Assembly: GCA_965220085.1 (NCBI GenBank)
Contig: CBDCOZ010000002.1
Location: 166,215-230,214, forward strand
Length of the DNA stretch: 64,000 nucleotides
Reading direction: 5' to 3'
From: Candidatus Oxydemutatoraceae bacterium
Lineage (GTDB): Bacteria > Pseudomonadota > Gammaproteobacteria > Poriferisulfidales > Oxydemutatoraceae
The notes beneath the pieces are model-generated. The model was not told the origin of the DNA and did not search any database. It saw only the letters and a list, made by a program, of their open reading frames with translations. The position numbers and the translations under genes are program-made. This document shows positions 11,744 through 42,787 of the stretch, one piece after another. The number at the start of each line of letters is the position of its first letter. Positions within the stretch are counted from its first letter, which is position 1.

Positions 11744-11950
11744 CTATCGCAACGGGCCCTCAAGAAAGAGGCGCAACCGCAAGCGTATATCGGTAGACTT
11801 CAGGTTGATGGTCATCGTATGGAGGACGCTGGAGTCGGTGCCATCGCTGACTCTGAAGGTGAAACTGGCGTAGCCATCCATGCCGCCGACCCCAGGTACC
11901 GGAGAAAACCTCAGGTCGCCTATATTCGCTTGCGGTTGCGCCTCATTAAA
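11744..11950 (-). pseudogene. 3' fragment of a FLEGPLR-family cadherin-like protein
   Basis: NIGDLRFSP..GYASFTFRVSDG..HTMTINL..RLRLRLFLEGPLR*; no signal peptide or credible start. Confidence 0.75.
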
Positions 11951-12197
11951 TGTTATCTGCGTATCATAAACAATACGCAGATAACTCGGTAGCGGTTTTG
12001 GGTCTGCCGATAGGCAGATGCGCCGACGCAAGTTTTCAGGAACGCGGAAGGGACGAGGCGTCTGTCGGTTATGCCGAATGCGGCGGTGGATACGTGTATA
12101 GCATGGATGCTCGGAGTGTCAGTCCGTAGTCCTTTCCGTGGTGTTCCGGTGTTAAATCATAGCCAGATGGTCTGTTCGACCCCCCGTAAAGGGCTTC

Positions 12198-12650
12198 AAA
12201 TGACCTATCTCTGCTCTTTTAAGCCGGAAGTGGCCGCTTTTAGAAGGCTTCGATGCCGTATGATGGCCTATTGTTGCAGAATACCGTGTTGAAACCGGAA
12301 ATCCGGCGTATTTTTGGCGTTATCAAGAGATATCGGGCATATTGGCAGGTTTCGTTTGCGTTAAAATATGGAATTCCGTATAAATCATACAGATATTATA
12401 CACAGGGCCTTCAGTGCCGGTTGCAATGAAATGAGAATCATGCCTGTGGGCAGGCAGGTATCTGGGGCACACTTGCGGGTTCCGGTTGCGATGAAATAAG
12501 AAAGCCTTGATAAATCATGCAATTAAAGCAGGGGTTGCGGTTGCGATGAAATAAGAATGGTGCCTGCGATGGTTGGTATCTGCCATATCTTCCGGCTTTT
12601 GATGAGGGCTGGCTTGATCATCTGTCTCTTGCGTCGGAAGTGATAGGGGA
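12198..12650 (+). repeat. Decayed duplicate of 15243-15625, with local CCGGTTGCGATGAAATAAGAA-like repeats
   Basis: 12198-12410 aligns by eye with 15243-15450; 12545-12650 aligns with the 3' end of the ATP-binding gene fragment. Confidence 0.75.
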
Positions 12651-12862
12651 CACGCGCTACACTTTGACCGACCGCAATGCCCCCCATTGCTGTCTCTTGT
12701 GTCGGAAGTGGTAGGGGACACGCGCGCTTCTTGCGAGCGATTTGCAAGCGCTTGCGAGACGCTATCCTGCGGGTGGCGGCATGTCGCGCAAGCGCTTCTC
12801 GGTCGCGCTTAGGCGTTGCTATAATGGGGCAAGCCGCCGATACAAAGCCCGATGAGTTCCCG

Positions 12863-14050: not shown

Positions 14051-14439
14051 CCGGGAAGGCGCACGACCATAGCCGGATGCAGACACGCCGCAAGCCCTGC
14101 GCCCATCTCTGTGGTCGGCGCACTGGGTGGTGCCATGCGAGTGGGTGGCCGCTGGCTCGCGGGCCTGTCCGGAGGCCACTGCTCGCGAGCGCCAAGTCAA
14201 GCGCAAGCGACAAAGACGGACGCGGGCTACGGTCGCCAAGCGCCGTAGCGAGCGCAGCCAGTCCGCCCAAGCGCCCCTGTGTTGTTCTGCGACAGCGCTA
14301 CCGGCGGTCTGGCGGGGCGGGGTTCATGTCGTGCATGTGCTCAAGGCAAGCGCAAGAGCGTAGCGAGCGCGGCGGAGGCGCAACGGTGCCCCTGTGGGGG
14401 CCGGTGACAGTGCTGGCAGCGCGACCGGTGCGCGGTGCA

Positions 14440-15243: not shown

Positions 15244-15524
15244 ATGACCCATCGCTGCCTTTTTTAAGCCGAAGTGGCCGCTTTTAGAGGGTTTTGATGC
15301 CGTGTGAGGGCTGATTATTGCAGAATACCGTGTTGGAGCCGGCAATCCGGCGTATTTTTGGCGTTATTTAGAGATATCTGGCATATTGACAGGTTCTGCT
15401 TGCGCTAAAATAGAAAATCTCGTATAAATCATGCAGATATTATACACAGGCACCTGCGCTGGAATAGGGAACTTCATATGAATCATACGGCTATTATCCA
15501 CAGATATCTGCGCTAAAATAAGAA

Positions 15525-16030: not shown

Positions 16031-16282
16031 CGCGCACTCCCCTCGCAGGGGAATTGCTCGCACTCAGTGCAAAGGCCGAGTCGCGGGCAAGGGCGATGCG
16101 AAGAGCGGGCGAGTAAGAGTTGGTGCGAGCGGGAGTCATGCGGCGCGGGGTTGCCGGTTGCGCTAAAATAAGAATCAAGCCCGCGATGGCAAATATCTAA
16201 CATATCTTCCGTGTTTAGGCTCTGTGACCGACTAGTACTTATAATGGGGCAAGCCGCCGATACAAAGCCCGATGAATTCCCG

Positions 16283-17464
16283 ATGAAAATCAAATACGCT
16301 TTAATGAGTTCCAACTCCGACCCCAAGTATCTGGACTTCTGGCCGGCCGCAGCCGAAGCGTGGCAGAAGCTCGGCATAACACCGGCGCTGTTTTACATTC
16401 CCGACCACGCCGCCGATGCGCCGGTTGTGCCGCAGGAGGTGGCGGGCACCGAGGTGCACACCGTGCCGCTGTTGCCCGATGTGCACATCGTGATGCAAGC
16501 GTCGTTGCTTCGGTACTGGGGGAGTTGCAAGTATCCGAACGATGTGGTGATCATCAGCGACATCGATCTGTTGCCTCTGTCGCGGCAGTTTTTCATAGAG
16601 CAGTTGGTCGAAGTGGCGGATGACCGCTATGTGCATCTGAAATTTGACAACGCCAGATACAAGCATTTTTATTTGTGCGATGCGGCGGCGGGCGCGCGGC
16701 ACGATGCCACAAGGATACGTTATCTGCCCGCTTGCTATCACATCGCCAAAGGCGGCTTGATGCATGCGGTGTGGTGGGGCTCCGATGTTGCCGACAGTTC
16801 GGGAGAGACAGGCAGCGCCCCTTCCGACTGGAAGTCTTGTTGCGAACGAGTGCTGCCGTATTTCCGGCGGCGGGAGGGGGAGGATATGAAACATACGTTT
16901 GCTCCCAAAACCGATACCGCGCAGGAGTCCGGCAACGGCATATTTAACAGGTTCGGCGATGAGCTGTACTCGTCTGCGCGTGTGCATCGGTTTGCGCATC
17001 AAGAGGTGTTTCATTACGTAACCTACCCGGCGCAGCAATATTATTTTTTGAATCGCAACGCATGGATGTATGACCCCGAGCGGTTGCGGCAAGGCTATTA
17101 CTCGGCGGCGCATCTGCCGCGCCCGTATGGGCAATACAAGTCGGCTATAGATGCGTTGCGACGGCGCCGCGCCCCGCCGTTGATCTACCGCGCATTATTT
17201 TGGACGATAAAAGCATTCGGCGCGGCAGGCCGGCGTTCGCCCAAACCCGTCGCGTTTCTTTTTTACTTTGCTATCGCGGCGGGTGAGGATGCATTCGGGG
17301 CGATTGACCGGCGCACCGGTTCGGGCGGCGCGGCATTGTTGCAAGAGCATTGCAAGGGGATGTGCCAGGCGCATGCCGACAACCCGCGCATGGTCGCGGC
17401 GCAGAAAAGGTATCGGCGGTTGCAGGAAGCGCTGCGCCGCTTACTGCCGCGCCCGCGACCATAG
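16283..17464 (+). CDS. Putative GT-A-like glycosyltransferase (paralogue 2)
   Basis: Close paralogue of 12863-14050 with the same upstream TATAAT module. Confidence 0.65.
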   Translation: MKIKYALMSSNSDPKYLDFWPAAAEAWQKLGITPALFYIPDHAADAPVVPQEVAGTEVHTVPLLPDVHIVMQASLLRYWGSCKYPNDVVIISDIDLLPLSRQFFIEQLVEVADDRYVHLKFDNARYKHFYLCDAAAGARHDATRIRYLPACYHIAKGGLMHAVWWGSDVADSSGETGSAPSDWKSCCERVLPYFRRREGEDMKHTFAPKTDTAQESGNGIFNRFGDELYSSARVHRFAHQEVFHYVTYPAQQYYFLNRNAWMYDPERLRQGYYSAAHLPRPYGQYKSAIDALRRRRAPPLIYRALFWTIKAFGAAGRRSPKPVAFLFYFAIAAGEDAFGAIDRRTGSGGAALLQEHCKGMCQAHADNPRMVAAQKRYRRLQEALRRLLPRPRP

Positions 17465-18613
17465 CCGGACGCAAGCGCGCCACAACCGTCGGGGGATGCA
17501 GAGCGCGATGTTCTTGAGAATGTTCTTGGCATAGCGCAGGCTGATATTCGGGTTGCGACAAAGCATGCGGCAGACGCAAAAGAGCTTGTGCGGGCGCGCG
17601 AATAAACGCATCAGAAAGGACGGCTTCTCGGCGCGCCGCGCCAAGGCCGCCTCGGCTATGGATGCCCACGCCTTGCCCATCTTGGTCGGCACATCGTAGT
17701 AGTGATGGCGGGGCAAGACGGGCGGCGCCTTGCGGTACTCTTCGTATAGTTTGGGTTCGTTGTCTATTTCCCGTATGCGGTCGATGACATCGTCCGTGTT
17801 TCCGTAGTCGTGGCAATTGACGAAGGCGCGCGGGTTATAGTAGTCGGCAATCGCGGGGCAACCGTGATATATCGGGATGCTTCCCACCGCCAACGGGTGT
17901 GATATTTTTTCCGTGACATAGCCGTTGATAGAAGTGTTTTCAAAAGCGATGGTGAATTTGTAGTCTTTGATGAAGCGGAGTTTTAAATCAAAGGGGTGAA
18001 TCCACCCGGGCTCGGTTTGCTCGGGGAATGACATGTTGTTGAGAGACTGCCCGGGGCAATCGACCGGCTTGTATCGCATGAGTTTGCGGCAGAAGTCACG
18101 ACGGATTTTTGTTCCGGGCCGGCGGTCGTTTGAATAGACGTAATTGCAGAATTTTGTTTTCGCTATCTCTTTGTGCCGATGCCAGTTACCCAAGAAGTCC
18201 AGCAGTCCCAGCCCCAGACAGACGTTCTCGCAGTCTCCCTTGCGCGCGGGAGGAAACGATGAAAAAACATAGTCGTACCCGTCCGGGTTCGCTATCATGG
18301 GTTCGCCGATTTTTGTTAATAGCAATGGCCGGGCGCCGAACGTCCAGCGCGCGAAAAGGGCGGACATAAACAACTGGGCATCGTCGCCGGACAGGACGCT
18401 GAGCAATATCAAATCCGGATCTTTTGCGACCCTGACGAAGCGATAGGGAAGCGCGTCATATTCTTTGCGGAAGTTTACGGGGAAAGGCAGAACCGCCTCC
18501 TTGTCTTCTTGATAAGAAAACGGTTGCGCCGACGAATGCGGCGCGCGGCATATGATGCACAGATAGCGGATGACCGCCTTGGCATCATCCGCCGCACAGT
18601 TTTGTTTGCGCAT
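17441..18613 (-). CDS. Alpha-1,3/4-fucosyltransferase (GT10 family)
   Basis: FCNYVYSN, YKFTIAFENTSINGYVTEKI, SIPIYHG and NPRAFVN motifs as in Helicobacter FucT. Confidence 0.9.
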   Translation of the reverse strand: MRKQNCAADDAKAVIRYLCIICRAPHSSAQPFSYQEDKEAVLPFPVNFRKEYDALPYRFVRVAKDPDLILLSVLSGDDAQLFMSALFARWTFGARPLLLTKIGEPMIANPDGYDYVFSSFPPARKGDCENVCLGLGLLDFLGNWHRHKEIAKTKFCNYVYSNDRRPGTKIRRDFCRKLMRYKPVDCPGQSLNNMSFPEQTEPGWIHPFDLKLRFIKDYKFTIAFENTSINGYVTEKISHPLAVGSIPIYHGCPAIADYYNPRAFVNCHDYGNTDDVIDRIREIDNEPKLYEEYRKAPPVLPRHHYYDVPTKMGKAWASIAEAALARRAEKPSFLMRLFARPHKLFCVCRMLCRNPNISLRYAKNILKNIALCIPRRLWRACVRLWSRARQ

Positions 18614-18636: not shown

Positions 18637-20655
18637 TTATCGCAACGGGCCTTCCAGGAAGACGCGCAACCGCAAGCGCAGGCGCAGGCGCTCCGCCAAG
18701 CTAATGGTCATGGTGTGGGTTGCGCTGTCTAAGGCGCCATCGTTTACGGTGAAGGTGAAACTGGCGAAGTCAGGGGCGGCGGCGGAGTTGTCCGGGGGAT
18801 AGAAAGTGAGGTTGCCGTTGCGCAGCTCGTCGTCGGTTACTTCGGTGTTGGCGGTCACTGCGGCGCTGCCGTTGCGCAATGTGCCCTTGCCGGATGCTAT
18901 CGGGGTGACTATGGTTATGTGATCCAGGCTGTTGCCTTCCTCGTCCCTGTACGGGAAGTCGGATTCCGTGAAGATGTACGGATTGGTTGCGCTTGTGTTG
19001 ACGGATACGCTCACCGAATTGTCAGCGCTGGTGGGCACATCATTGACATGGGTTACCACGGCGCCGTCGGAGCACAGCATGGGGGCGCCGACGCTGCCGC
19101 CCTCGGCGTTGTTCAGAGCATCGCGGAAGAATGCGCAGACTCTGATGTGCATGTTCCCATCCGCCTGCGAGGGGGTGAAGGCGGCGGCGTTGGCTCCGGA
19201 GATGGCGGCGTATGGGCCGGTCTGGGCATCGGCGCGGTACCATTGCCAGCGTATGTTTGCATTGCTTATGCCGTTGGGGTCGGTAATGCCGTCGGTACTG
19301 GCGGTCAGCTCGGTATCCTCGTCATAGCCGGCGGTCGGGTCTGCGGCCGGAGTCACTGTGGGGGCGCCGCTGGCGGCGCCCTGAGTGGCACTGACGAGGT
19401 CTATGATGAGGGTGGCATCGGCGGTGGCCTCGTTGGCGACTGCCGTTGAGGGTGCTGATGTTGTGCCGGTGTCGCGCACCCGGTATGTGAATGTCGCATA
19501 GTCGTCGGTGACGGTGGCGCCGTCAGCCGGGTAGTATGCCAGAGTGTCCAGTTCGGCCAGAGTCAGCGTGGCGTTTGCGCCGCCGGTGACGGCTGTGTTG
19601 GAAGCGCCCACCCGCCGCACCAGAGTGCCCGCCGTGGGCAGGGTGACTATGTGGATGCCGTTGATGGTGTCGTCATCGACATCGCTAAATGGAAAATCCG
19701 CCCTGACAAAGCGGTGCGGATTGTTGCTGCTGACATTGGCCGGCACCGCAACCGTGCTGGTGCTGCCGACAGGCGCATCGCTGATATTGTCTATGCGGGC
19801 GACCTCGGAGCAACGCGTCTCGTCGCCGGGAGGGGTATGCAGATCCTTGAAGCTGACGCAGAGGCGCACATACTGCTCCGCCTGTTCATCGCCGGGGGCA
19901 AAGTGGTCGGGCATGTTCCCGGTGGAGGTCGCGCCTCTGATGTCGGCGTATGGGCCGGCGCGGGCGGGGGATTGTTGCCATTGCCAACTATAGGCGATAG
20001 CGACGTTGCCTTCTCTGCCGAAGCCGACTGGGTCGATGCCGCCGTTCAGGTCATTGATATCGCCAGGTCCGCCTTCGAGTATCTCATCCTCCCAGTAACT
20101 TTCTCTGGAAAATGTGGTCAGGGACTGGTGGAAGGGCGCGCCGATGGCGGGTGTTTGCGCGACCGCGCGAAGGTTGATGCTGAGCGTGGCTTCGTTGGAA
20201 TCCAGGAAACCGGCCCTGACAGTGAATGTAAAACTGGTGTAGCCGAATTGTGCCTCCTGATTGGCTTCCGGCCAGTATTTGATGTCGCCGAGGTTGGCGG
20301 CGGTCACATTCTGATTCACCGTAGCGGCGGAGCTGGCCACCTGCAGGGTGCCCCGAGCCGGCAGGCTCTTTATCGTGATGTTGACCAGAGTATCCCCGTC
20401 CCTGTCGTTGAAAGGGAAGTCGTCCCTCTTGAAGGTGTACGGCATGTCGGAGGTGGCGTTGTGCGGTATCCAAAGCGTGTTAGGCATGGCCTCCGGCGCC
20501 GCCGCCGATGCCTGAGCAATCGCTTGGTTCGCCGTGGCGAGCAGGGCAAGCATAGCCGACAACAAGAGGCCTCGGCGCATCATCGTTGCTCGCCAGTTGC
20601 GCTGTCGCAGCGCATGCGGGAAGACCCGCTCTTTGAGTTGAGATTTAATTCGCAT
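18637..20655 (-). CDS. Secreted cadherin-like/Ig-repeat protein, FLEGPLR family
   Basis: Signal peptide (..LLLSAMLALLATANQAIA|Q), alternating DFPF.D.DGD and WQW..GA..F.P Ig-like repeats, ends RLRLRLRVFLEGPLR*. Confidence 0.85.
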   Translation of the reverse strand: MRIKSQLKERVFPHALRQRNWRATMMRRGLLLSAMLALLATANQAIAQASAAAPEAMPNTLWIPHNATSDMPYTFKRDDFPFNDRDGDTLVNITIKSLPARGTLQVASSAATVNQNVTAANLGDIKYWPEANQEAQFGYTSFTFTVRAGFLDSNEATLSINLRAVAQTPAIGAPFHQSLTTFSRESYWEDEILEGGPGDINDLNGGIDPVGFGREGNVAIAYSWQWQQSPARAGPYADIRGATSTGNMPDHFAPGDEQAEQYVRLCVSFKDLHTPPGDETRCSEVARIDNISDAPVGSTSTVAVPANVSSNNPHRFVRADFPFSDVDDDTINGIHIVTLPTAGTLVRRVGASNTAVTGGANATLTLAELDTLAYYPADGATVTDDYATFTYRVRDTGTTSAPSTAVANEATADATLIIDLVSATQGAASGAPTVTPAADPTAGYDEDTELTASTDGITDPNGISNANIRWQWYRADAQTGPYAAISGANAAAFTPSQADGNMHIRVCAFFRDALNNAEGGSVGAPMLCSDGAVVTHVNDVPTSADNSVSVSVNTSATNPYIFTESDFPYRDEEGNSLDHITIVTPIASGKGTLRNGSAAVTANTEVTDDELRNGNLTFYPPDNSAAAPDFASFTFTVNDGALDSATHTMTISLAERLRLRLRLRVFLEGPLR

Positions 20656-20718: not shown

Positions 20719-21822
20719 TTAGCATAACCGCTTGTGCAATCGGCATGGATGGCGTACGCTCGCATTATACAATACGGTTTGCATGTTGCCGGTATGTGTA
20801 TGATGCCAGTACATATTGGAAACTTTGGGCAAATGTTGTGTAATTAGTGCCATAGGTGTTTGGAGCCTCAATCCATAATGTGGTCGTTGGGTATTAAACC
20901 ATAGCAGGTAGTCTATCATACGCTCATTGAATTCCCGAATATCGGTCAGCAACAAGCCCTCTTCAAACTCCACAAACTCTTCCTGGAGCGTGCGGTTAAA
21001 GCGTTCATTGAATGCGTTCATCTTCGGACATTTGGGATACGTGTAGCAGTGCCGGATACCTTGCTCTTGCAGGCAGCGATCAAACGCGCCGCAGAACTCG
21101 GAGCCGTTGTCGGTGAGCACTTGCTCTATCTTGGCGGGGAACACTTCCATCATCAGCTTCATAAAGAACTCGGCAGCGATGCTGTTGCCACGAGGGACGC
21201 CGATAGCAAAGCCAAACCGGCTATGCAAATCTACGGCCGTGAACAGATAGCGACGCTGACCTTGAATAAACCGTTGCACGGTATCCATGGCGATGCAATG
21301 CCCGATACGCTTTGCATTGAAACCCTTTTCAAGACGCTCCTTGCTCTTGCTTTGCGTTGTGCGTTGCCGACGCGGTTTTGCGGGCACCCAGCGCATCTTA
21401 TCGGGTGCGCTGGCAATCAGTCGCACGATGGTGCGCGGCTTGGGACAACGCAAGCCGCGCTCGTCACACCACGGTTGAATCAGCAGGTATATCTTGGGTG
21501 CGCCGTAGGGATAGTTTTTGCGGTGTCGCCGAATCTCGTCGATAATCTCCGGAGGCCAGTCGCGCCGGCGTGGCTGGCGCGGGCAAGTGCTCTGATTGAT
21601 TAAGCCGTTAATGCCATAAAGCCGATATTGTCTCCGCCACTCATAGAGTGATGATTTGCTGATGTGGTAAGCGTCCATGCTGGCTTTTATGTTGTGGTTC
21701 TCCCATAATATAAGGGCTTCAAGTTTCTGTTTTGCTTTATAGCTCATAGTTGCCTCGTCTATTGAAAAAGCAGCTATTTTATAGAAACCTTTGATGCCGT
21801 GGCCGATGTGTTGATATTGCAT
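20719..21822 (-). CDS. IS481-family DDE transposase (integrase core)
   Basis: HTH region, AMDT, VLTDNGSEF, NERFNRTLQEE, FNTQRPH; ORF reads through the IR; start may be 21747. Confidence 0.9.
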   Translation of the reverse strand: MQYQHIGHGIKGFYKIAAFSIDEATMSYKAKQKLEALILWENHNIKASMDAYHISKSSLYEWRRQYRLYGINGLINQSTCPRQPRRRDWPPEIIDEIRRHRKNYPYGAPKIYLLIQPWCDERGLRCPKPRTIVRLIASAPDKMRWVPAKPRRQRTTQSKSKERLEKGFNAKRIGHCIAMDTVQRFIQGQRRYLFTAVDLHSRFGFAIGVPRGNSIAAEFFMKLMMEVFPAKIEQVLTDNGSEFCGAFDRCLQEQGIRHCYTYPKCPKMNAFNERFNRTLQEEFVEFEEGLLLTDIREFNERMIDYLLWFNTQRPHYGLRLQTPMALITQHLPKVSNMYWHHTHTGNMQTVLYNASVRHPCRLHKRLC

Positions 21823-21877
21823 GTCGGCTACGTTTGTTGTTGAAGCCAAGAATCCAGAATGTTTCTGGCATTATGCA
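20797..21877 (-). mobile_element. Intact IS481-family element (1081 bp)
   Basis: Imperfect IRs TGTATGATGCCAGTACATATTGGA / TGCATAATGCCAGAAACATTCTGGA; 5-bp target duplication GTATG at 20792-20796 and 21878-21882. Confidence 0.9.
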
Positions 21878-32694: not shown

Positions 32695-33886
32695 ATGAAA
32701 ATGTTTACAATGTTTAGCCAGTTCACCCCCCCCCCCCCCCCCCCGCATTGACTTAAGCGGGCGCGGCCTCCGGTCGCTCTTCCTGCTCGCCCTCTTCATC
32801 GTATCCGCTCAGGCTCAGGCGCAGAATGCCACCGGCATGCCATCGGTGGCTTACGCCAGTGGCAGCGCACCCACCGAGGATGTGCGGATAACCGCATCGG
32901 GTGACAACATAGCCGATGCCGATGGCTTGGGCGCCTTCGGTTGGCAATGGAGCGCGGCCGACACCAACGGCGGCGCCTACGCCAATATCTCCGGCGCGAC
33001 CAATGCCGCATTCACTCCGGGCGATGACGAGGTAGGCAAGTTTCTGCGGGTCTGCGCATCGTTCATGGATATGGCCGCCACCCCCAATATGGAGAAGCGA
33101 TGCCTGCAGATAGCCACCGCTGTGGCCAACATCAACGACAAGCCATTGGCCACCTCTTTCACAATTGCAGTGCGCACCGCCGCCAGCGCCGCCGACCCCT
33201 ACAGGCTCCGACCAACTGACTTCACTTTCAGAGATGCCGATAACGACATGCTGGCCAGCGTAGTCATACACGGCCTGCCGGCCGCCGGTACCATGTCCTT
33301 GGATGGCACGGCCCTGACCGCCGACGATGTCCCCACAGCGGAGATAACTGTGGTCCGACTGACCGCCGGCGCTCTGACCTATTACCCGGAGTCAGGCCAG
33401 GAGCCCACCAACCCCAGCGATTCCTTTGAAATTTATACCAGTTTCAGATTCGGCGTGACAGACGATGGCAGCGATGGCACCGGCAACAATGCCAGCGACA
33501 ACATCGCCAGCATCAGCATCCGTCTGGTATCGGCGGTCCAGACCGCCGCCTCTGGCAGTCTCATCACACTTCCACTTCCCAACGGGGTAGGGCTGTCCGC
33601 CAATACCGTCGGAATCAGAGATCCCAACGGCATAAATCGCAACACTCTGATGTATGAATGGCAACAGTCCGCCGCCAGCGATGGCCCCTTTGCCCCCATA
33701 GAGGGTGCCACCTCCAGAGAATTCACCCCCCGGCCAGGCCAGTTGAATCAATACATCCGCGTCTGCGTAACCTTTATGGATCAACACACACCCCCGGCAG
33801 AGGAGGGCCCGCTCTGCTCTGCCGCCGTTCGTGTCGGCCCCATACGCTTGCGCTTGCGCATCTTCCTGGAAGGCCCGTTGCGATAG
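32695..33886 (+). CDS. Phase-variable FLEGPLR-family Ig/cadherin-like secreted protein (out of frame in this sequence)
   Basis: AGGAGG-ATG MKMFTMFSQFT then C19; removing one C joins RIDLSGRGLRSLFLLALFIVSAQAQAQ signal peptide and the 32837-33886 ORF. Confidence 0.82.
32726..32744 (+). repeat. Poly-C tract (C19)
   Basis: Direct count; lies at codon 11 of the gene. Confidence 0.9.
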
Positions 33887-35059: not shown

Positions 35060-36816
35060 ATGAAAATGTTTACAATGCTTAACCAATTCACCCCCCCCCC
35101 CCCCCCCTAGTCCTTGAGCGGATTTGCGTAGCACTGCTCGCTTGCGCTTTGTCTTTGCTTACGAACACCGCACACGCACAAACCAACAGCTGTGCGGCGG
35201 TCATCCACGGCACCGAATGCATGGACGCATGCCCCGCCGGATTCACCGCCACAACCCAAGACCGCGTGTGCATTGAAAACGCGCACATCGATGGCGCGAA
35301 CAAATGCGAAGCCAAAGGATGGACAACCCGACTGGAGATTGCCGGCTTCGCCTTTTCCCTTTGTAACATAAAAAACAAAGACCCGACATCAACCCAGGAC
35401 TTTTGCATTTTGGGCATCAACTGCGCAGACCGTTTCGGTCCGGACCTTGACTTTCCGCAACGCCCGGCGGACGACCCGGCAACGGCGGAAGACGAAAGCG
35501 ACCCGCGCTATGTCTACAACTGCGACACGGGCGGAACCACCGGACATCTTCCGGCGACTTTCGCCGACGGGCGCACGATGTGCGAATGTCCCGCCGCCGC
35601 GACAGAAAACGCGGACGGCGTGTGCGTTTGTCCGGCGCAAACCGTCTTGCTGGGCGAGGCTTGCCTCGCCGACACGCCGGAAAACAGATGCAAAGCGGCG
35701 GGATGGACGGTCTCAACCGACAATCAATGCGTCGTCCCCATCACCTCCCCGGACGGCGGCAATGCGGACGGATGCTTCTTGGCCGGCAACGGCAGTCCGC
35801 AATGCGCCGATGTGTTCGGACCGGATCTGTCGTTTCCAGACCCTTCGACCGACTCCGCCGCGCGGTTTGTCTACGACTGCGGTCTGGACATGATCCCGCC
35901 GCGGGCAAACACCGACGGCGAAACCGAATGCGCGCCCGACCCGCAAGCGTGCGGGTTCAGCGACGTAGCAAGCACATTCAGCGGTCAGGACAGTGCGCAA
36001 CAAATTTCCATGCAGTTTGATGTCTGCGCGGCAAAAGGATGGCAGGCGAAAAAGCATCCCAGTTTTGAATCCGTTTTGAAGTCTTGCTACTGCGACATCA
36101 ATGTGCGGGACGCGTCAGCCGCAGTAGCATGCCCCTACTCCCACTCTTCCTCCCGCTTCGGAAATGTCAGCGGAAATACCTTCCTTCGCCATCACTTCGG
36201 CCCCGCCCTGCAATACCTCCCGCAATGGACGGCCGAAAATGCGGACACCTGCTTTGTGTCGCATTGTCCGGACGGGATGGAACCGACCGAGTTCAACACC
36301 AACGGCGCGACCGAATGCCTGGCGCCCAGCGGGACGGTTTGCGGGGAGTTGAGTCCGGCGAAACGCTTTGACGGCAGCGCCTGCGTGGAAGACTGCGCGA
36401 TGGCGGCGACATTGAACGAGGCGGCGAATGTGTGCGAATGCCAAGCGCCCAATGTGGGGACGGGTTCGGATTGCCGTGCGCCGAGCCCACAGGTTTGCGC
36501 GGGTTTGACACCGGCAAAATTCTTCAACGAAACAGCCTGCGTTGATTTTGTTTTGTGCGCCGCACCGGCGACATTGAACGAGGCGACGAATGTTTGCGCA
36601 TGCAATTCGCCAAATGTGGGGACGGGTTCGGATTGCCGCGCACCGAGCATACAGGCTTGCGCGGGTTTGACGCCGGCGAAACACTTTGACGGGGCGACCT
36701 GCGTTAATCTTGTTTTCTGCGACGCGCCGCTGGTGCCGGACATAGCGACGAATACCTGCGTGTCCGGCGATATCAACCTGCGCCTGCGCATCTTCCTGGA
36801 AGGCCCGTTGCGGTAG
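35060..36816 (+). CDS. Phase-variable cysteine-rich (EGF/furin-like repeat) secreted protein, FLEGPLR family (out of frame)
   Basis: MKMFTMLNQFT then C17 then TAG; adding one C joins LVLERICVALLACALSLLTNTAHA|Q and the Cys-rich ORF ending INLRLRIFLEGPLR*. Confidence 0.82.
35091..35107 (+). repeat. Poly-C tract (C17)
   Basis: Direct count. Confidence 0.9.
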
Positions 36817-37395
36817 TGCGAGCATCCCCTCGCCGCATCGTCTATCGCATCATCTCGCAAGCACACCGGAGAGGGGAACGATGATTGGCGCAAGCACACA
36901 GCTTTCCCTCTCACCGCATTGTCTGTCGCCTGTGGCCCGGACTCTGCGACTCCCGCGTGGGGAGCGTCGTGCCAGCACCCGCACAAAGCTTGCGCTGAGG
37001 AAAAGTCTATATAATATAGGCATTACGGGGGATAAATGCGCCAGTTGCAAGGCGTGTGCAAATCGTGTATAGTGCAAGTTTTGCAGGAAATGTGTACGCA
37101 AACAGCAGTTTAATGAGGCACAGTGATAAGAGCACAAACAACTTTGTTGTTTGTGGCTTTTTCATGAGAGCACGGTAATAAGAGCACAAACGATATTTAA
37201 TCGTTTGTGGTTCCATAAACTGTTTGTGGTTTCTTAAGCTGTTTGTGTTCCATAAACTGTTTGCGGAATGTTTATTGGAGGTTGTACGGAACCCGATGGA
37301 AAATATTTTGTACCATTATAGGCATCATCAAAGATGCGCGCGCTCAATCACAGGGCGGGTGCAAAGACCTTATAATGCAAACTTTAGGAGGATGC

Positions 37396-38382
37396 ATGAA
37401 AATGTTTACAATGTTTAACCAATTCACCCCCCCCCCCCCCCCCCCCCCCCCTCATGTAGCTGCTGAACAGCGGCTCAGTTGCCGTAGCCTGCGGTCGTTG
37501 ACCATCCTCGCTTTGTTTGCGTTGTACGGCACGGCACAGGCGCAGGACAGTGCGCCGGACTTTGGCGATGCATCGGTTGCGGATCAGGGTTGGCTGACCG
37601 GCACAGCGCTCAGTCTGGTGTTGCCTGAGGCTACCGGCGGCGATGGCGCTCTCTCATACACGCTGACCCCGGCTTTGCCGGCGGGCCTGACCTTTGATGC
37701 GACCGCCCGCGCCATCAGCGGCACGCCGACCGCTGTGGCGACCGAAGCCGCCTATGCCTACACGGTCACCGATAGCGACAGCAACACCATGTCCGCCGAT
37801 GCGGACACCTTGACTTTTGCCATCATCGTGGAAAGCGCTCCCGACAGGCTTTGCACCCGTCGGGGCTGGACTTACGACACCGCTTCCGACAAATGCCAAA
37901 TCCCCCTTTTCTCAGGCGGAATCAACTTTGACGGATGCTTCTTCTCCGGAGACGATGCCCCCCAATGCACCGATGTCTTCGGCGGATCACTCGCCATTCC
38001 CTCCACTCTGACCGGAGTCGCACTGTCTCTTTACAACGCCTTTCACGCCGCCGCCATCGACCCTAATACGAGCTCCCATGTTGCCCCCGCCGCCGCCATT
38101 TGGCGCGATGCCGTTGTGGCGCGGCACACCGGCGATCCAGACTACGCCGACGGCCCCGTCGCCCACTCTGCGGTCACCAGCAGTCTTATAAACGAATTTA
38201 TCTCCGAGCGGTTGGGGCATCATTTCAACGCCAACGGAATTCCCTTTGAGGACGACAGCGAAGACTTTGAAAGTGAAATCCGCACCGCCTTTGCCCAAAT
38301 CCCCGTGCGCCAACCCTTCGTCTTCCCATCGGACACGCTCAACTTGCGGTTGCGCATCTTCCTCGAAGGCCCGTTGCGGTAG
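37396..38382 (+). CDS. Phase-variable putative-Ig (He_PIG) protein, FLEGPLR array member 1 (in frame)
   Basis: MKMFTMFNQFT-P8, signal peptide ..GTAQAQ, LPAGLTFD..ISGTPT Ig motif, Cys module, FLEGPLR end. Confidence 0.85.
   Translation: MKMFTMFNQFTPPPPPPPPHVAAEQRLSCRSLRSLTILALFALYGTAQAQDSAPDFGDASVADQGWLTGTALSLVLPEATGGDGALSYTLTPALPAGLTFDATARAISGTPTAVATEAAYAYTVTDSDSNTMSADADTLTFAIIVESAPDRLCTRRGWTYDTASDKCQIPLFSGGINFDGCFFSGDDAPQCTDVFGGSLAIPSTLTGVALSLYNAFHAAAIDPNTSSHVAPAAAIWRDAVVARHTGDPDYADGPVAHSAVTSSLINEFISERLGHHFNANGIPFEDDSEDFESEIRTAFAQIPVRQPFVFPSDTLNLRLRIFLEGPLR
37427..37451 (+). repeat. Poly-C tract (C25)
   Basis: Direct count; keeps the reading frame. Confidence 0.9.
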
Positions 38383-38389: not shown

Positions 38390-39352
38390 ATGTTTGCGAT
38401 GTTCACACCCATTTACACCCGTCGGCGGAACAGAACACGCACTCGGCGTAGCCTGCGGTCGTTGACCATCCTCGCTTTGTTTGCGTTGTGCGGCACGGCA
38501 CAGGCGCAGGACAGCGCGCCGGACTTTGGCGATGCATCGGTTGCGGATCAGGGTTGGCTGACCGGCACAGCGCTCAGTCTGGAGTTGCCTGAGGCTACCG
38601 GCGGCGATGGCGCGCTCTCATACAGCCTGACCCCGGCTTTGCCGGCAGGCCTGACCTTTGATGCGACCGCCCGCGCCATCAGCGGCACACCGACCGCTGT
38701 GGCGACCGAAGCCGCCTATACCTACACGGTCACCGATAGCGACAGCAACACCATGTCCGCCGATGCGGACACCTTGACTTTTGCCATCATCGTGGAAAGC
38801 GCTCCCGACAGGCTTTGCACCCGTCGGGGTTGGACTTACGACACCGCTTCCGACAAATGCCAAATCCCCCTTTTCTCAGGCGGAATCAACTTTGACGGAT
38901 GCTTCTTCTCCGGAGACGATGCCCCCCAATGCACCGATGTCTTCGGCGGATCACTCGCCATTCCCTCCACTCTGACCGGAGTCGCACTGTCTCTTTACAA
39001 TGCCTTTCACGCCGTAGCCATCCTCTCCGGAAACCCCCCATGGGTCCCGGTCATCGCCGTCGCTTGGCGCGATGCCGTTGTGGCGCGGCACACCGGCGAT
39101 CCGGACTACGCCGACGGCCCCATCGCCGCCCTTGCGGGCAACACTCGCACTCAGAATGCGCTCGCCCTCGAGATCCTTAATACGAATGGTTTCGTTCCCA
39201 ACGGAATTCCCTTTGAAGATGCCGTCGCCGCCGACTATGAGCATGAAATCCGCACCGCTTTTGCCCTAATCCCCGTACGCCAACCCTTCGTCTTCCCATC
39301 AGACACGCTCAATTTGCGGTTGCGCATCTTTCTAGAAGGCCCGCTACGGTAG
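38390..39352 (+). CDS. He_PIG protein, FLEGPLR array member 2
   Basis: ATG 7 nt after the previous stop; MFAMFTPIYTRRR leader; near-identical N-terminal two thirds. Confidence 0.85.
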   Translation: MFAMFTPIYTRRRNRTRTRRSLRSLTILALFALCGTAQAQDSAPDFGDASVADQGWLTGTALSLELPEATGGDGALSYSLTPALPAGLTFDATARAISGTPTAVATEAAYTYTVTDSDSNTMSADADTLTFAIIVESAPDRLCTRRGWTYDTASDKCQIPLFSGGINFDGCFFSGDDAPQCTDVFGGSLAIPSTLTGVALSLYNAFHAVAILSGNPPWVPVIAVAWRDAVVARHTGDPDYADGPIAALAGNTRTQNALALEILNTNGFVPNGIPFEDAVAADYEHEIRTAFALIPVRQPFVFPSDTLNLRLRIFLEGPLR

Positions 39353-39359
39353 CGCGAGT

Positions 39360-40325
39360 ATGTTTGCGACGTTCACACCCATTTACACCCGTCGGCGGAC
39401 AACACGCCCTCGGCGTAGCCTCTGGTCGCTGACCATCCTCGCTTTGTTTGCGTTGTGCGGCACGGCACAGGCACAGAACAGCGCGCCGGACTTTGGCGAT
39501 GCATCGGTTGCGGATCAGGATTGGTTGACCGGCGTAGCGCTCAGTCTGGTGTTGCCCGCGGCTACTGGCGGTAATGGCGCTCTCTCATACAGCCTGACCC
39601 CGGCTTTGCCGGCGGGGCTGACCTTTGATGCGGACACCCGCGCCATCAGCGGCACACCGGCCTCTACGGCAACCGAAGCCGCCTATACCTACACGGTCAC
39701 CGATAGCGACAGCAACACCATGTCCGCCGATGCGGATACTTTGACTTTTGCCATCACCGTGGAAAGCGGAACTCCCGACAGGCTTTGCACCCGTCAGGGT
39801 TGGACTCACGACACCGCCTCCGACAAATGCCAAATCCCTCTGACCTCGGGCGGACGCGACTTTGACGGTTGCTTCCTCTCCGGAGACGATGATCCCCAAT
39901 GCGCCGATGTCTTCGGCGAATCACTCGCCTTTCCCTCCTCCGCTCTGACCGGAGTCGCATTGTCCCTTTACAACGCCTTTCACCGTGAGGCTTTCAGAAC
40001 CGACAACTCTGCCGGCGGCTCTGCAATTCGCGCAAATGCCATCGCTTGGCGCGATGCCGTCGTTGCGCGACACAACGGCGATCCGAACTACGCCGCCGGC
40101 CCCGTCGCCGCCCTTGCGGATAGCTCCTTTGCTCTAAGCATCTTCCTCGCCCAACAGTTGGAGATTCATTTCAAAGACAACGGAATCCCCTTTGACAAAG
40201 ATACCAACGACCTTGCGAATGAAATCAGCGTTGCCTTTTCCAAAATCCCGGTACGCCAACCCTTCGCCTTCATGAGCTCGATCAACCTGCGGTTGCGCAT
40301 CTTCCTGGAAGGCCCGTTGCGGTAG
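39360..40325 (+). CDS. He_PIG protein, FLEGPLR array member 3
   Basis: Same architecture, different variable region. Confidence 0.85.
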   Translation: MFATFTPIYTRRRTTRPRRSLWSLTILALFALCGTAQAQNSAPDFGDASVADQDWLTGVALSLVLPAATGGNGALSYSLTPALPAGLTFDADTRAISGTPASTATEAAYTYTVTDSDSNTMSADADTLTFAITVESGTPDRLCTRQGWTHDTASDKCQIPLTSGGRDFDGCFLSGDDDPQCADVFGESLAFPSSALTGVALSLYNAFHREAFRTDNSAGGSAIRANAIAWRDAVVARHNGDPNYAAGPVAALADSSFALSIFLAQQLEIHFKDNGIPFDKDTNDLANEISVAFSKIPVRQPFAFMSSINLRLRIFLEGPLR

Positions 40326-40332
40326 CGCGAGT

Positions 40333-41283
40333 ATGTTTGCGATGTTCACACCCATTTACATCCGTCGGCGGACAACACGCACTCGGCGCAGCCTTTGGTC
40401 GCTGACCATCCTCGCTTTGTTTGCGTTGTGCGGCACGGCGCAGGCACAGAACAGTGCGCCGGACTTTGGCGATGCATCGGTTGCGGATCAGGGTTGGCTG
40501 ACCGGCACAGCGCTCAGTCTGGTGTTGCCCGCGGCTACCGGCGGCGATGGCGCTCTCTCATACAGCTTGACCCCGGCTTTGCCGGCAGGCCTGACCTTTG
40601 ATGCGACCGCCCGCGCCATCAGCGGCACACCGACCGCTGTGGCGACCGAAGCCGCCTATACCTACACGGTCACCGATAGCGACAGCAACACCATGTCCGC
40701 CGATGCGGACACCTTGACTTTTGCCATCATCGTGGAAAGCGTTCCCGACAGGCTTTGCACCCGTCGGGGTTGGACTTACGACACCGCTTCCGACAAATGC
40801 CAAATCCCCCTTTTCTCAGGCGGAATCAACTTTGACGGATGCTTCTTCTCCGGAGACGATGCCCCCCAATGCACCGATGTCTTCGGCGGATCACTCGCCA
40901 TTCCCTCCACTCTGACCGGAGTCGCACTGTCTCTTTACAATGCCTTTCACGCCGTAGCCATCGCCGCACACGCCGGATATCTCACAGCCGCCGCCGCCAT
41001 TTGGCGCGATGCCGTCGTGGCGCGGCACACTGGCGAGTCAAACTACGCCGCCGGCCCCGTCGCCGCCCTTGCGAACAATTCCCTTCCTATAAACGGCCTC
41101 ATCGTTCAGGAGTTGGGGCATCATCTCAACGAGAGCGGAATCCCCTTTGACGACGACACCGACGGCGACCTTGAAAAGGAAATCCGCGCCGCCTTTTCCA
41201 AAATCCCGGTACGCCAACCCTTCGCCTTCATGTCTTCGATCAACCTGCGGTTGCGCATCTTTCTTGAAGGCCCGTTGCGGTAG
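40333..41283 (+). CDS. He_PIG protein, FLEGPLR array member 4
   Basis: Same architecture, different variable region. Confidence 0.85.
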   Translation: MFAMFTPIYIRRRTTRTRRSLWSLTILALFALCGTAQAQNSAPDFGDASVADQGWLTGTALSLVLPAATGGDGALSYSLTPALPAGLTFDATARAISGTPTAVATEAAYTYTVTDSDSNTMSADADTLTFAIIVESVPDRLCTRRGWTYDTASDKCQIPLFSGGINFDGCFFSGDDAPQCTDVFGGSLAIPSTLTGVALSLYNAFHAVAIAAHAGYLTAAAAIWRDAVVARHTGESNYAAGPVAALANNSLPINGLIVQELGHHLNESGIPFDDDTDGDLEKEIRAAFSKIPVRQPFAFMSSINLRLRIFLEGPLR

Positions 41284-41584
41284 CGCGCGCAACATTCGCC
41301 CCTTGCGGACTCACACTACACACTCCTACCGCACCATCCCGCAAGCACACCGGCGAGGGGAACGATGATTAGCGCCAGCACGAAGCTTTCTCCTCGCCGC
41401 ATCGTCTATCGCCCGACAGCTCGGACTCTGCGACTCTCCGGCGAGGGGAGGGTGCGGTTGGCGCAAGGGCAAAGCCTGCGCTTAGGAATACTCTATATAA
41501 TGCGGGCGTCGTCAAAGATGAATGCGTTGATTGCGGGGCGTGTGCGAGTCGTGCATATTGCAAGCTTGCCGAGGATACATTAAA

Positions 41585-42787
41585 GTGTTTGCGATGTTCA
41601 CACCCATTTGCACCCGCCGACGGACAACACGAACTCGGCTTAGCCTGCGGTCGCTCATTCTGCCGGCGCTGTTTGTTGTCTGCGCTCAGGCGCAGGCGCA
41701 GAACACTGTCGCCACCGGGGAACCGGCGGTGACGGCGGCGGACAGCGCTGACCTGACTATGGTGGGGCCCAATGAGGACATTGTGCTGACTGCGGCCCGC
41801 GGCACGATAATGGATGATACCGATGACATCACCACATTCAGCCCGACCTGGGCCTGGCAACAGGCCGATGCCCCGAACACCGGCACTCCGGCGGACAGCG
41901 ACTACTCCGCCATAGCCGGCGCCACCGCCGCCACCTTCACACCCCTGCAGGAACATGGCGGCAAGTTCATCCGCGCCTGCGCCACCTTTGACGATGATGC
42001 CGGCAACAGCGAGACCCGATGCTGGACCTCCGCCGCCGCTGTGGTCAATGTCAATGACAAACCGGTTGCGCTGGACAACACCATCTTTGTGCCGGTGGGC
42101 GGCAGTTACACTTTCTCGGCGGACGACTTTCCGTTCACCGATGAAGAGCGTGACACTCTGCGTTGGGTGACCGTTAACACCGTGCCCTCCAGAGGCACTG
42201 TGGCCATATTGGGATCAGGCGCCAGCAGAAGCTTTGACGTTTCGAAGTCACATTTGGATAGCAACAACCTGACCTACGTCCCTTCCGCTGATGCCACCGC
42301 TCCCATGGCCGGCTATACCACCTTTACCTTCGTTGTGAGAGCCGGCGGCGGTAACCGCGAACACGCCAGTGCCGCCGCCACCATGACCATAGATCTGGTG
42401 CAGGCCACGCAATCGGCGGCAACCGGCACACTGATTGTGACGGCGGCATCGGGCGCAGCCTACAACGAGGGCGCGGAACTGACCGCCTCCACCGCCGGCA
42501 TCATCGAACCCAACGGCATCCGCCCCCACGGCCTGATGTGGCAATGGCAATCCGCCAGCGCGCCAATCAGCGGCGCCCCGCCCGCCAGCGCATATGGCGA
42601 CATCACTTCGTTCACCGACGCCACCTTCACCCCTTCGCAAGCGTATGTCGGCACATACATCCGCGTTTGCCTCAATTTCACCGATGGCTTGGGCACCGCC
42701 GAGGGCCCGTTCTGCTCCGCCGGCGCCCGTGTGTTTGACGCCTTGCGCTTGCGGCTGCGCCTCTTCCTTGAAGGCCCGTTGCGGTAG
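41585..42787 (+). CDS. Ig/cadherin-like secreted protein, FLEGPLR family
   Basis: GTG 41585 or ATG 41594 start, signal peptide ..CAQAQAQ, WAWQQ/DFPFTD repeats, ends ALRLRLRLFLEGPLR*. Confidence 0.83.
   Translation: MFAMFTPICTRRRTTRTRLSLRSLILPALFVVCAQAQAQNTVATGEPAVTAADSADLTMVGPNEDIVLTAARGTIMDDTDDITTFSPTWAWQQADAPNTGTPADSDYSAIAGATAATFTPLQEHGGKFIRACATFDDDAGNSETRCWTSAAAVVNVNDKPVALDNTIFVPVGGSYTFSADDFPFTDEERDTLRWVTVNTVPSRGTVAILGSGASRSFDVSKSHLDSNNLTYVPSADATAPMAGYTTFTFVVRAGGGNREHASAAATMTIDLVQATQSAATGTLIVTAASGAAYNEGAELTASTAGIIEPNGIRPHGLMWQWQSASAPISGAPPASAYGDITSFTDATFTPSQAYVGTYIRVCLNFTDGLGTAEGPFCSAGARVFDALRLRLRLFLEGPLR

Follow-up and report, generated by a model that had tools for sequence, protein, structure and literature searches.

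A C-terminal strand shared by over 200 adhesin-like genes of a probable sponge symbiont: a candidate natural tag-and-acceptor display system

Introduction

Why should nine open reading frames (ORFs) in a single stretch of bacterial DNA all stop directly after the same peptide? The stretch analyzed here (the window; 64,000 nucleotides) belongs to a Candidatus Oxydemutatoraceae bacterium, a probable sponge symbiont, and each of the nine ends in LRLR[ILV]FLEGPLR with an immediate stop codon. An initial annotation took this tail for a candidate undescribed sorting or assembly signal, an amphipathic beta-strand acting either in export or as a donor that docks interchangeable passengers onto a shared scaffold. 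The second idea agrees better with our results: over 200 surface-protein genes of this bacterium probably plug into one common adaptor.

Results and Discussion

The tail in the window

On the minus strand, the tag closes an open frame of 124 amino acids (11744..12118) and a gene of 672 amino acids (18637..20655). The former is a tag-gene fragment with a weak Big_9 match but neither start nor signal peptide, ending IRLRLRLFLEGPLR-TAG (tag codons at 11747-11782). The latter carries a Sec leader and Big_9/cadherin-like repeats, and ends LRLRLRVFLEGPLR-TAA. The remaining ORFs lie on the plus strand. The open frame at 32699..33886 encodes three beta-sandwich domains and the tag, and the one at 35083..36816 Cys-rich repeats without a Pfam family, ending INLRLRIFLEGPLR-TAG. 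These are followed by a gene for a He_PIG domain, a C-terminal part and the tag (37219..38382), a He_PIG-family paralogue without a poly-C tract (38390..39352), a He_PIG gene of 321 amino acids (39360..40325), a further He_PIG-family paralogue of 316 amino acids (40333..41283) and a Cadherin_4/Big_9 gene of 418 amino acids (41531..42787) that ends LRLRLRLFLEGPLR-TAG. The stop is TAG in eight of the nine ORFs and TAA in the one ending at 18637.

About 58 nt downstream of the fragment's tag lies a degenerate second copy of the 3' half of the tag with its stop (QRLRDTLRLEGRLR and stop; 11686..11728, minus strand), one unit of a 56-58 bp minisatellite that also follows certain tag genes in other parts of the genome.

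The initial annotation described the window accurately in most respects. All nine ends match, the eight full-length members have Sec-type leaders (ending AQA, AHA or AIA before Q), and the FLEGPLR codons vary only synonymously. The bodies do differ, as it stated, when judged by Pfam, which assigns them to Big_9/cadherin-like, to He_PIG or to no family; genome-wide, however, single-linkage BLAST unites 183 of 188 tagless bodies in one cluster, because leaders and modules are common to them. The absence of a transmembrane-type sorting end was likewise correct, the tail consisting of 12 residues with GPLR at the end, without the helix of the usual arrangement of signature motif, hydrophobic helix and basic tail. 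LPXTG, PEP-CTERM, GlyGly-CTERM and T9SS CTD signals are also C-terminal elements common to many secreted proteins of one genome, but the tag has no transmembrane helix, basic tail or CTD of about 80 amino acids, and its proposed reader is a binding partner rather than a sorting enzyme.

Two simple explanations found no support. A match to a known sorting domain did not emerge from Pfam or NCBIfam (no NCBIfam sorting domain in the seven window proteins searched). Nor does the tail look like the last strand of its own protein's fold, since one window tag protein, modelled as a monomer with a mean pLDDT of 90.4, has its tag as coil (pLDDT 52-55).

Genome-wide census and conservation of the peptide

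The motif search that had been suggested for this genome and its relatives took the finding far beyond the window. Six-frame translation of the whole 2.49 Mb genome contains 223 matches to [FL]LEG[PA]LR; in 218 of these the next codon is a stop (TAG 138, TAA 52, TGA 28), and tag-ended genes occupy about 19.6% of the genome's DNA. A back-translated DNA pattern of the tag has 214 matches in this genome and the reversed pattern has 0; the frequency of the tag is far beyond chance. The same peptide recurs in other genera. In G011 it is written in different codons (e.g. AIRVRVKVFLEGPLR and stop), and ...KVFLEGPLQ with an immediate stop was found in 12 of 12 sampled places of G007, G017, G015 and G002.

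Codon usage indicates what is being conserved. Among 216 DNA-defined tag copies found by nhmmer, the seven codons of FLEGPLR depart from the consensus codon 507 times synonymously and 10 times non-synonymously, and there are 184 distinct versions of the 36-nt tag, bearing out the proposed selection on the peptide. Third codon positions and the first positions of Leu and Arg are free while the peptide is fixed, which, together with the use of three different stop codons and of other codons in another genus, argues against an element conserved mainly as DNA or RNA (a cassette recombination site, a terminator or an mRNA 3' stabiliser) and only incidentally translated. Nor is there excess RNA folding energy (mean z -0.41 vs -0.17 for adjacent coding sequence; 60 of the 218 copies, mononucleotide shuffles). 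Such an element would fit the tandem duplications of gene 3' ends, the mosaic network formed by the bodies, the minisatellites, which comprise no more of the tag than its last codons, together with sequence downstream of it, and some conservation beyond the stop, but we consider it very unlikely. Recombination between tails may occur as a side effect.

The conservation beyond the stop takes the form of a weak YGCGAG motif (CGCGAG after 59 of 138 TAG stops; TGCGAG after 10 of 52 TAA and 5 of 28 TGA stops), which is without explanation under the strand-docking reading.

The parent C-terminal domain

By sequence comparison, the tail is homologous to strand 1 (ΦxΦ[KR]ΦFLEGP[YFL]) of a widespread, unnamed C-terminal domain. 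In unsplit relatives this domain opens LNLKIFLEGPFMGAVMNTML..., LDLTVYLEGPY... or LNAKVFMEGPF..., and LRLR[ILV]FLEGPLR follows the same opening-strand pattern as LNLKIFLEGPF and the latter two. The complete layout is ΦxΦKΦFLEGP[FY], 5-6 residues, MNT.L..LP..QPY...DWVLVELR...HRNHL and a dockerin-like part. A profile of the acceptor described below matches 11,050 representative proteins (E<=1e-3), and in most of them the matching part is a C-terminal domain. The domain is without a model in Pfam and NCBIfam, and its carriers, secreted proteins, are called 'hypothetical protein' in their sources. The nearest clusters of unsplit relatives are commonly from Bacteroidota; the (K/R)VFLEGPY strand that the initial annotation attributed to many secreted proteins of that phylum is real, and it opens the C-terminal domain.

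In this genome the remainder of the domain is not in the same polypeptide as the tag, since a stop stands behind 218 of the 223 copies. The proposal of an undescribed stand-alone sorting signal was not upheld, as the tail is homologous to strand 1 of an existing, unannotated domain, which a sister genome encodes in fused form.

A single acceptor gene and the splitting of the domain

The domain remainder is encoded by a single gene copy in this genome, against 218 tags. Its product, a secreted protein of 320 amino acids encoded outside the window (contig C3, 469169-470137), matches the entire domain apart from strand 1. In each of 40 aligned stand-alone acceptors the signal peptide ends A.AQ, and in all but two of the 40 rows the acceptor starts 0-5 residues before a conserved M. 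The spacing from GP to MNT is 5 residues in the unsplit proteins P0068, P0066 and P0082, and also 5 across the tag and acceptor of this genome (LR + QRS) if the leader is cut after ANA; the inferred mature N-terminus of the acceptor starts about where the tag stops.

Judged from gene layouts, relatives show fused, adjacent-split and dispersed-split states of the domain. The sister genome (G001) has no tags and 30 giant proteins with the whole domain, in open frames of 687-17,496 amino acids. In G015 and G002, giant FLEGPFR genes are succeeded by an acceptor gene that encodes a signal peptide of its own, at a distance of 31 bp in G015 and with an overlap in G002. Genomes of genus g5 contain stand-alone acceptors and no tag detectable with the tag profile used, and neither tag nor domain was found in 34 genomes of the order's other three families.

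That there is a family of acceptors which lack the strand and bring a signal peptide of their own also counts against the idea that the tails are inert stumps of a deleted C-terminal domain, or artefacts of assembly or annotation. That idea could draw on the 30 of 218 copies that lie behind open frames of <100 amino acids, which are gene fragments, and on about 10 near-copies with one non-synonymous change (e.g. FLEDPLR, FLKGPLR). Stumps would be expected to decay, yet the peptide is invariant across 218 copies and across genera despite heavy synonymous divergence, and the stop is constantly at the same residue. We regard this explanation as extremely improbable.

In two structure searches, the best matches of the unsplit domain were type II X-module-dockerin (XDoc) chains. 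Foldseek returned 5k39_B at E 0.012 (XDoc matches E 0.012-0.12, TM 0.52-0.60 on the target); VIA returned 3kcp_A (Z 7.5, rmsd 4.3, 152 aligned) and 5g5d_B (Z 7.4, rmsd 4.2, 150 aligned), with the next row at Z 4.9, which are middling matches, best Z values of 7-8 being typical even of models without clear relatives. The type II XDoc of Clostridium thermocellum scaffoldins binds cell-surface cohesins. Its order of parts, with an Ig-like sandwich ahead of a pair of dockerin-like repeats, seems to agree with that of the unsplit domain, whereas sequence identity is 7-14% and Dockerin_1 scores remain below the Pfam cut-off of 22.9 bits (15.8 for the G015 acceptor, 17.5 for a fused copy of the sister genome). 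The acceptor of this genome has no Dockerin_1 match; its dockerin-like half is a degenerate version whose first loop contains an insertion. Among Atlas neighbours, Dockerin_1 is present in 15-19% of members. No cohesin was found in this genome, the best match (14.4 bits vs a cut-off of 24.1) containing a stop; a more divergent receptor may be present. We know of no split form of XDoc.

Predicted complex of tag and acceptor

Co-folding of the tag with a partner lacking a strand, which had been proposed as a check, was carried out with the last 36 residues of the tag gene at 39360..40325. The tag-acceptor complex obtained an ipSAE of 0.84 (runs 0.86, 0.84 and 0.81), compared with 0.02 for the best of three controls. 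At least 92% of contacts agree between runs, with a pLDDT of 60 or more for the partner. The predicted interface joins tag residues 20-36 to acceptor strands at about 137-139, 170-173 and 213-217 and to its first residues, 30-34. Of 80 solved complexes 58 reach the ipSAE mark, as do 2 of 110 mismatched pairs, a calibration that is rough here, with our own alignments. Such a pass is to be expected of the two parts of a split domain, whose unsplit family the model recognises; it is evidence that tag and acceptor together resemble the complete domain rather than evidence that they meet in the cell. With binding predicted in silico only, the earlier suggestion that the tail is a donor strand, by which exchangeable passengers dock onto a shared partner, gains support from a concrete acceptor and a modelled complex.

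The alternative role suggested for the tail, export, found no support in the analysis. It would require the tail to be an autonomous export or sorting signal for other machinery, such as an Omp85/BAM-type protein or the T2SS whose cluster (GspJ, K, L, M and secretin) lies 3-15 kb upstream of the acceptor gene, the likeness to strand 1 being ancestry alone. The strand is amphipathic, and the full-length members, all with Sec leaders, must still cross or reach the outer membrane. No candidate reader came to light, however, and in a model of a fused relative the strand (residues 7-16) is buried in the fold (pLDDT 92 for residues 11-20). All 40 acceptor-family members lack exactly this strand and its uptake is predicted, so there would be little need for a second reader. 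Moreover, in three proteins the tag strand is N-proximal and runs into a GGS linker, so that the strand does not depend on a free C-terminus, in keeping with a strand donor. We judge an export signal improbable.

Proposed mechanism and related systems

The strand-docking reading, in which a natural tag-and-acceptor display system was built by gene fission and the tag donates its strand to a single acceptor, is in our view likely, with support in silico only. The tail ΦRΦRΦFLEGPLR would be the first beta-strand of a C-terminal module of about 250 residues, consisting of an Ig-like sandwich resembling an X-module and a dockerin-like pair of calcium-loop repeats. Gene fission would have split this module in the present lineage, passengers retaining strand 1 and then a stop, and the remainder being made once, separately, as the Sec-exported 320-residue acceptor. 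After export, the tag would enter the incomplete sandwich of the acceptor as a strand (donor-strand complementation), so that about 200 different cadherin/Ig-like passengers would share one adaptor, whose dockerin-like half presumably fixes the complex to a cell-surface receptor. Where assembly takes place, that the complex is anchored at the surface, what the dockerin-like half does and that phases actually switch are inferences. The stoichiometry, with 218 donors to one acceptor gene, is odd and counts against docking. Further points against this reading are the degenerate dockerin-like half of the acceptor, the Dockerin_1 and cohesin scores below their cut-offs, the middling fold matches, the genus g5 genomes with acceptors but no detectable tag, and the YGCGAG motif after the stop.

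Both halves fit the unnamed FLEGPY...DWVLVELR...HRNHL domain, the tag its first strand and the acceptor the rest, but here they are two polypeptides, with about 218 donors per acceptor. Donor-strand complementation and exchange are features of chaperone-usher and type V pili. There too, a terminal strand with alternating hydrophobics completes the Ig-like fold of another chain, as predicted here. Those pili, however, are polymers of like subunits, whereas the arrangement proposed here is one of hub and spokes, with a single acceptor for many unrelated passengers, and its donor strand corresponds to the first strand of the acceptor's fold. In SpyTag/SpyCatcher and other engineered split-domain tags, an Ig-like strand peptide of about 13 residues attaches arbitrary cargo. 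The likeness lies in a one-strand peptide recognised by the remainder of its Ig-like domain, whereas the proposed system is natural and without sign of a covalent isopeptide bond.

If the tail does dock onto the acceptor, this would to our knowledge be the first natural hub-and-spoke beta-strand complementation, attaching hundreds of cargo proteins modularly to one adaptor as engineered split-domain tags do. It would save about 218 x 250 residues of repeated anchor domain (about 160 kb, 6-7% of the genome), explain a huge, variable adhesin repertoire in a small symbiont genome, and show what a very large family of unannotated domains, with 11,050 representative clusters, is for. The system would also provide a ready-made orthogonal peptide/adaptor pair for protein engineering, and sponge symbiont-host recognition could be tested through one gene, the acceptor, rather than 200.

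Poly-C tracts at the 5' ends of tag genes

A poly-C tract of 9–28 nt stands behind a short leader in 82 of the 188 larger tag genes, and 82 of the 100 C/G tracts of at least 8 nt are at the 5' end of tag ORFs. Three are in the window. In the gene ending at 33886, a 19-nt tract (32726..32744, plus strand) separates the upstream leader ATG (MKMFTMFSQF) from the signal-peptide core; the ATG is out of frame in this assembly. The leader ATG is also out of frame in the gene ending at 36816, with a 17-nt tract at its 5' end (35091..35107, plus strand). In the gene ending at 38382, the leader (MKMFTMFNQF) is in frame in this assembly through a 25-nt tract (37427..37451, plus strand), translated PPPPPPPP.

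Overall, 23 of the 82 tracts keep the frame and 59 do not, a distribution suggestive of phase variation. Short-read contigs break at the tracts, where only 4 raw reads could be placed. Homopolymeric-tract contingency loci are known from Neisseria, Campylobacter and Bordetella. The tag genes resemble them in a long poly-C in the 5' coding region, about one third being in frame, but differ in their unusual scale, 82 genes of one protein superfamily in a 2.5 Mb genome. The tracts in the 82 leaders would switch single passengers on or off, and the probable sponge symbiont could present an ever-changing coat on a constant socket. For the whole picture, a tag-and-catcher display in which one secreted adaptor serves more than 200 adhesin-like proteins that take up a fifth of the genome, 82 of them switched by poly-C, we hold the chances to be even.

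Distribution of the C-terminal tag

The initial annotation had described nine ORFs in the window that share the C-terminal sequence LRLR[ILV]FLEGPLR (hereafter, the tag or tail), and all nine ORF ends do read in this way with an immediate stop, TAG in eight cases and TAA in one. The Sec-type leader ascribed to eight of these ORFs is likewise present, the ninth, ending at 11744, being a 124-aa fragment. The complete assembly of the source genome (G000; 2,492,841 bases in 3 contigs, C1 to C3, 55.6% G+C, the window corresponding to C2:166215-230214) was examined for further copies. Its six-frame translation contains 223 matches to [FL]LEG[PA]LR, of which 218 are immediately followed by a stop (TAG 138, TAA 52, TGA 28). 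Open frames of at least 100 aa are terminated by 188 of these 218 tags, the longest measuring 15,193 aa, and together these frames total 162,599 residues or ∼19.6% of the genome. By a crude scan, 136 of these 188 frames start with a signal-peptide-like stretch; most of those lacking such a start begin within or just upstream of a proline run. The tag phenomenon is genuine and its scale is extraordinary. No known sorting domain was found on seven tag proteins of the window, whose NCBIfam and Pfam matches are all of the Ig/cadherin type, and no recurrent partner gene near the window tag genes was found among the 20 other window ORFs scanned, which are housekeeping and mobile genes.

Conservation of the tag as a peptide

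Within the tag, variation is confined to third codon positions and to the first base of Leu and Arg codons; all other first positions and all second positions are constant. As the copies in this first count had been selected by their peptide, the count was repeated on copies retrieved with a DNA profile (nhmmer, E ≤ 1e-5, full coverage). In the resulting 216 copies, which comprise 184 distinct versions of the 36-nt tag, departures from the consensus codons of FLEGPLR are synonymous in 507 instances versus non-synonymous in 10. About ten additional near-copies with a single amino-acid change look like decaying copies. An RNA hairpin around the stop was also considered and was dropped, since RNA spanning the tag and 40 further nt folds no more stably than shuffled sequences (mean z of −0.41 versus −0.17 for adjacent coding sequence, 60 of the 218 copies sampled). 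A weak YGCGAG motif does lie immediately 3' of the stop, as CGCGAG at 59 of 138 TAG codons and as TGCGAG at 10 of 52 TAA and 5 of 28 TGA codons. Tandem minisatellites of 56-58 bp, the unit of which takes in no more of the gene than its final tag codons and stop, together with sequence further downstream, occur at C3:1659727-1660524, C3:648598-648967, C3:1577968-1578277 and window 11686-11728, and whole gene 3' ends are tandemly duplicated at C3:513743-514211 and C3:908957-909461 (156 and 168 bp, respectively).

Among the 53 genomes of the order, the exact DNA pattern FLEGP[LF]R-stop is confined to G000 (214) and four genomes of one other genus, Candidatus Porisulfidus (G011 16, G015 2, G017 2, G002 1); the reversed pattern, used as a control, gave 0 matches in every genome. 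Candidatus Porisulfidus is named among known sponge symbionts (PMC12988363) and served as a SUP05 outgroup (PMC9123188). Across the family, a profile built on the C-terminal 36 residues recovered 39 copies in the related genome G007, 23 in G015, 17 in G002, 16 in G011 and 14 in G017, weaker matches in genus g4, and no tag-type end in the sister genome G001. All 12 of the 12 places excised from these matches have a tail reading ...[RK]VFLEGPLQ followed by a stop, so that the tail is conserved as a peptide across genera of differing codon usage. A global DNA scan gave no match with the strict RLRx pattern and four stretches with a broader one, three from Ca. Porisulfidus and one from a Thermoanaerobaculia contig, in which the frame reads on and the match is probably due to chance.

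A proposed single-copy acceptor from an unnamed domain family

Giant secreted proteins (2,421-4,974 aa) of G015 and G002 end in ...VFLEGPLQ or ...LFLEGPFR, and behind every FLEGPFR gene there is one that encodes a secreted protein of ∼276 aa, located 31 bp downstream in G015 and overlapping in G002. The single G000 homologue (tblastn E 3e-17) is a 320-aa secreted protein encoded at C3:469169-470137, henceforth referred to as the acceptor. It is single-copy in G000, with 1 match in the genome comparison and a lone six-frame HMM match at E ≤ 1, and no Pfam or NCBIfam family was found on it. A word-based homologue search with the acceptor yielded 3 matches and was replaced by an exhaustive search with a family profile built from five such proteins. 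At E ≤ 1e-3 this profile matched 11,050 representative proteins, as a C-terminal domain in most of them, with about 40 stand-alone proteins of 258-330 aa among the matches.

Unsplit members open the domain with LNLKIFLEGPFMGAVMNTML..., LNAKVFMEGPFSGTQMNTSL... or LDLTVYLEGPY..., after which follow LP..QPY, DWVLVELR, HRNHL and a dockerin-like repeat pair. The strand of secreted Bacteroidota proteins to which the initial annotation had likened the tag is this opening strand. The source names of the unsplit proteins read 'hypothetical protein', one of them coming from a Bacteroidota MAG, and their closest Atlas clusters are commonly from Bacteroidota.

Two other candidate partners were considered. 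A 449-aa neighbour in G015 was dropped, being 79% identical to a G000 protein at another site and housekeeping-like. The 1369-aa secreted protein encoded directly after the G000 acceptor (C3:470148-474257) was weighed as an anchor or receptor. Neither a paralogue nor, beside the acceptors in the other loci compared, a homologue was found. The C-terminal end of this protein combines a run of Gly, a hydrophobic helix and the sequence RRQRRYE; it has a choice-of-anchor-U match below threshold and is a possible anchor. The acceptor gene is closely preceded by a type II secretion cluster with a secretin, pseudopilins and GspJ, K, L, M (C3:454279-466032).

Fused and split states of the domain

The sister genome G001 carries the domain 30 times, within open frames of 687-17,496 aa. 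There, strand and remainder form a single chain, ...ARVYLQGAYggsrgMSTGL...DWVLVELR...HHRNHL...GDVDRNGVIDERD...stop. The stand-alone proteins, when aligned, have a signal peptide ending in A.AQ in 40 of 40 cases, and all but two of the 40 start 0-5 residues ahead of the conserved post-strand M. The GP-to-MNT spacing is 5 residues in three unsplit proteins; it is likewise 5 when the end of the G000 tag (LR) is joined to the mature start of the acceptor (QRS), taking the cleavage site as inferred, and by this count tag and acceptor together would fit the unsplit domain. Fused, adjacent-split and dispersed-split states all occur within one family and would make up a plausible fission series there. 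In the three other families of the order (34 genomes), neither tag nor domain was found. Three genomes of genus g5 (G004, G009, G013) possess stand-alone acceptors, with the tag undetected by the last-36-residue profile; their tags may have diverged, since the fused G009 copy begins ...EINVLLGGAVRG.

Predicted structural relation between tag and acceptor

A simple alternative is that the tail forms the last strand of each protein's own fold. In the AlphaFold prediction for the window protein that ends at 33886 (mean pLDDT 90.4), the tail lies outside the modelled fold, as a coil with a pLDDT of 52-55 in an otherwise confident model. For complex prediction, the mature G000 acceptor was supplied with an alignment of 40 sequences and its partner chain, the 36 C-terminal residues of a window tag protein, with an alignment of 14. 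The ipSAE was 0.84 (runs 0.86, 0.84 and 0.81), versus 0.02 for the best of three controls; 58 of 80 solved complexes attain the mark used, as do 2 of 110 mismatched pairs. Contact agreement between runs was at least 92% and partner pLDDT at least 60. On the tag side, predicted contacts are limited to residues 20-36, which face acceptor residues 137-139, 170-173 and 213-217 and the first acceptor residues, 30-34. Because two halves of one domain will often pass a prediction of this kind through likeness to the whole family, the model is read as showing that tag and acceptor resemble the intact domain, in-cell binding not being implied.

Three G000 proteins (C1:36358-37998, C1:23868-25289 and C3:1171425-1173512) consist of a signal peptide, ∼22 aa, the same strand LRLRVFLEGPLR, a GGS linker and a passenger, which contains PPC repeats in two of them and is without family in the third. 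Since the strand precedes the passenger here, it does not require a free C-terminus. A trypsin-like protease assignment for C1:36358-37998 was dropped, as it relied on motifs spotted by eye, with no Pfam match and no PDB sequence match at E ≤ 1.

For a fused G001 copy (pLDDT 77.7, pTM 0.82), Foldseek returned no PDB match at E ≤ 0.001, and type II X-module-dockerin chains fill its nine best rows. A second, independent all-against-representatives alignment placed the same two entries on top, with middling scores (Z 7.5 for 152 aligned residues and 7.4 for 150; next 4.9). The Pfam Dockerin_1 match on the domain is sub-threshold and a cohesin was not found in G000, so that anchoring through the dockerin-like half is suggested only by analogy.

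The best explanation, fairly probable on in silico evidence, is that the tail is a detached donor strand for one shared acceptor, having arisen through fission of an unannotated X-module/dockerin-like C-terminal domain.

Poly-C tracts at the 5' ends of tag genes

A count of C or G runs of 8 nt or longer gives 100 in G000; 82 of them are located at the 5' ends of tag ORFs, one per ORF and always on the coding strand. These tracts measure 9-28 nt, bearing in mind that homopolymer lengths in the assembly may be erroneous; A/T runs in the genome never exceed 9 nt. Every tract is preceded by a conserved short leader, M[NK][RK]Q.FNT. The leader ATG shares the frame of the gene at 23 of the 82 tracts and is out of frame at the other 59, about the one-third in frame expected from slippage-driven switching. 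Judged by these sequence features, the tracts have the appearance of very large-scale phase variation. In the window, the leader is out of frame at the tracts 32726-32744 and 35091-35107 and in frame at 37427-37451.

Strand complementation as a principle is known from pili and engineered tags. Literature searches found no relevant paper containing the tag or strand motifs and, among the matches listed, none joining sponge symbionts with phase variation; matches for dockerin, sponge and symbiont were unrelated, judged by title and the start of the abstract. The proposed hub-and-spoke layout, the number of clients and the link to mass poly-C switching are absent from the literature searched.

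Other genes near tag genes and in the window

Near the giant tag genes of Ca. Porisulfidus, small proteins built from tandem repeats of the MATKDDIKN type, with a hydrophobic helix at the C-terminus, are encoded (G015 C1:1216713-1217294), relatives of which are found at several sites on G000 C3. In the window, the tag gene ending at 18637 is adjoined by an rve-family integrase/transposase gene (20719-21849, minus strand) and flanked by a GT10 fucosyltransferase-like gene and a methyltransferase gene (17441-18613 and 22136-23152, both minus strand), which may be linked to surface glycan work. A 1145-aa ORF with HNH and RuvC_III domains (58034-61471, minus strand) looks like Cas9, and the ORF at 6004-7668 (minus strand) encodes an FRG domain followed by TPR repeats.
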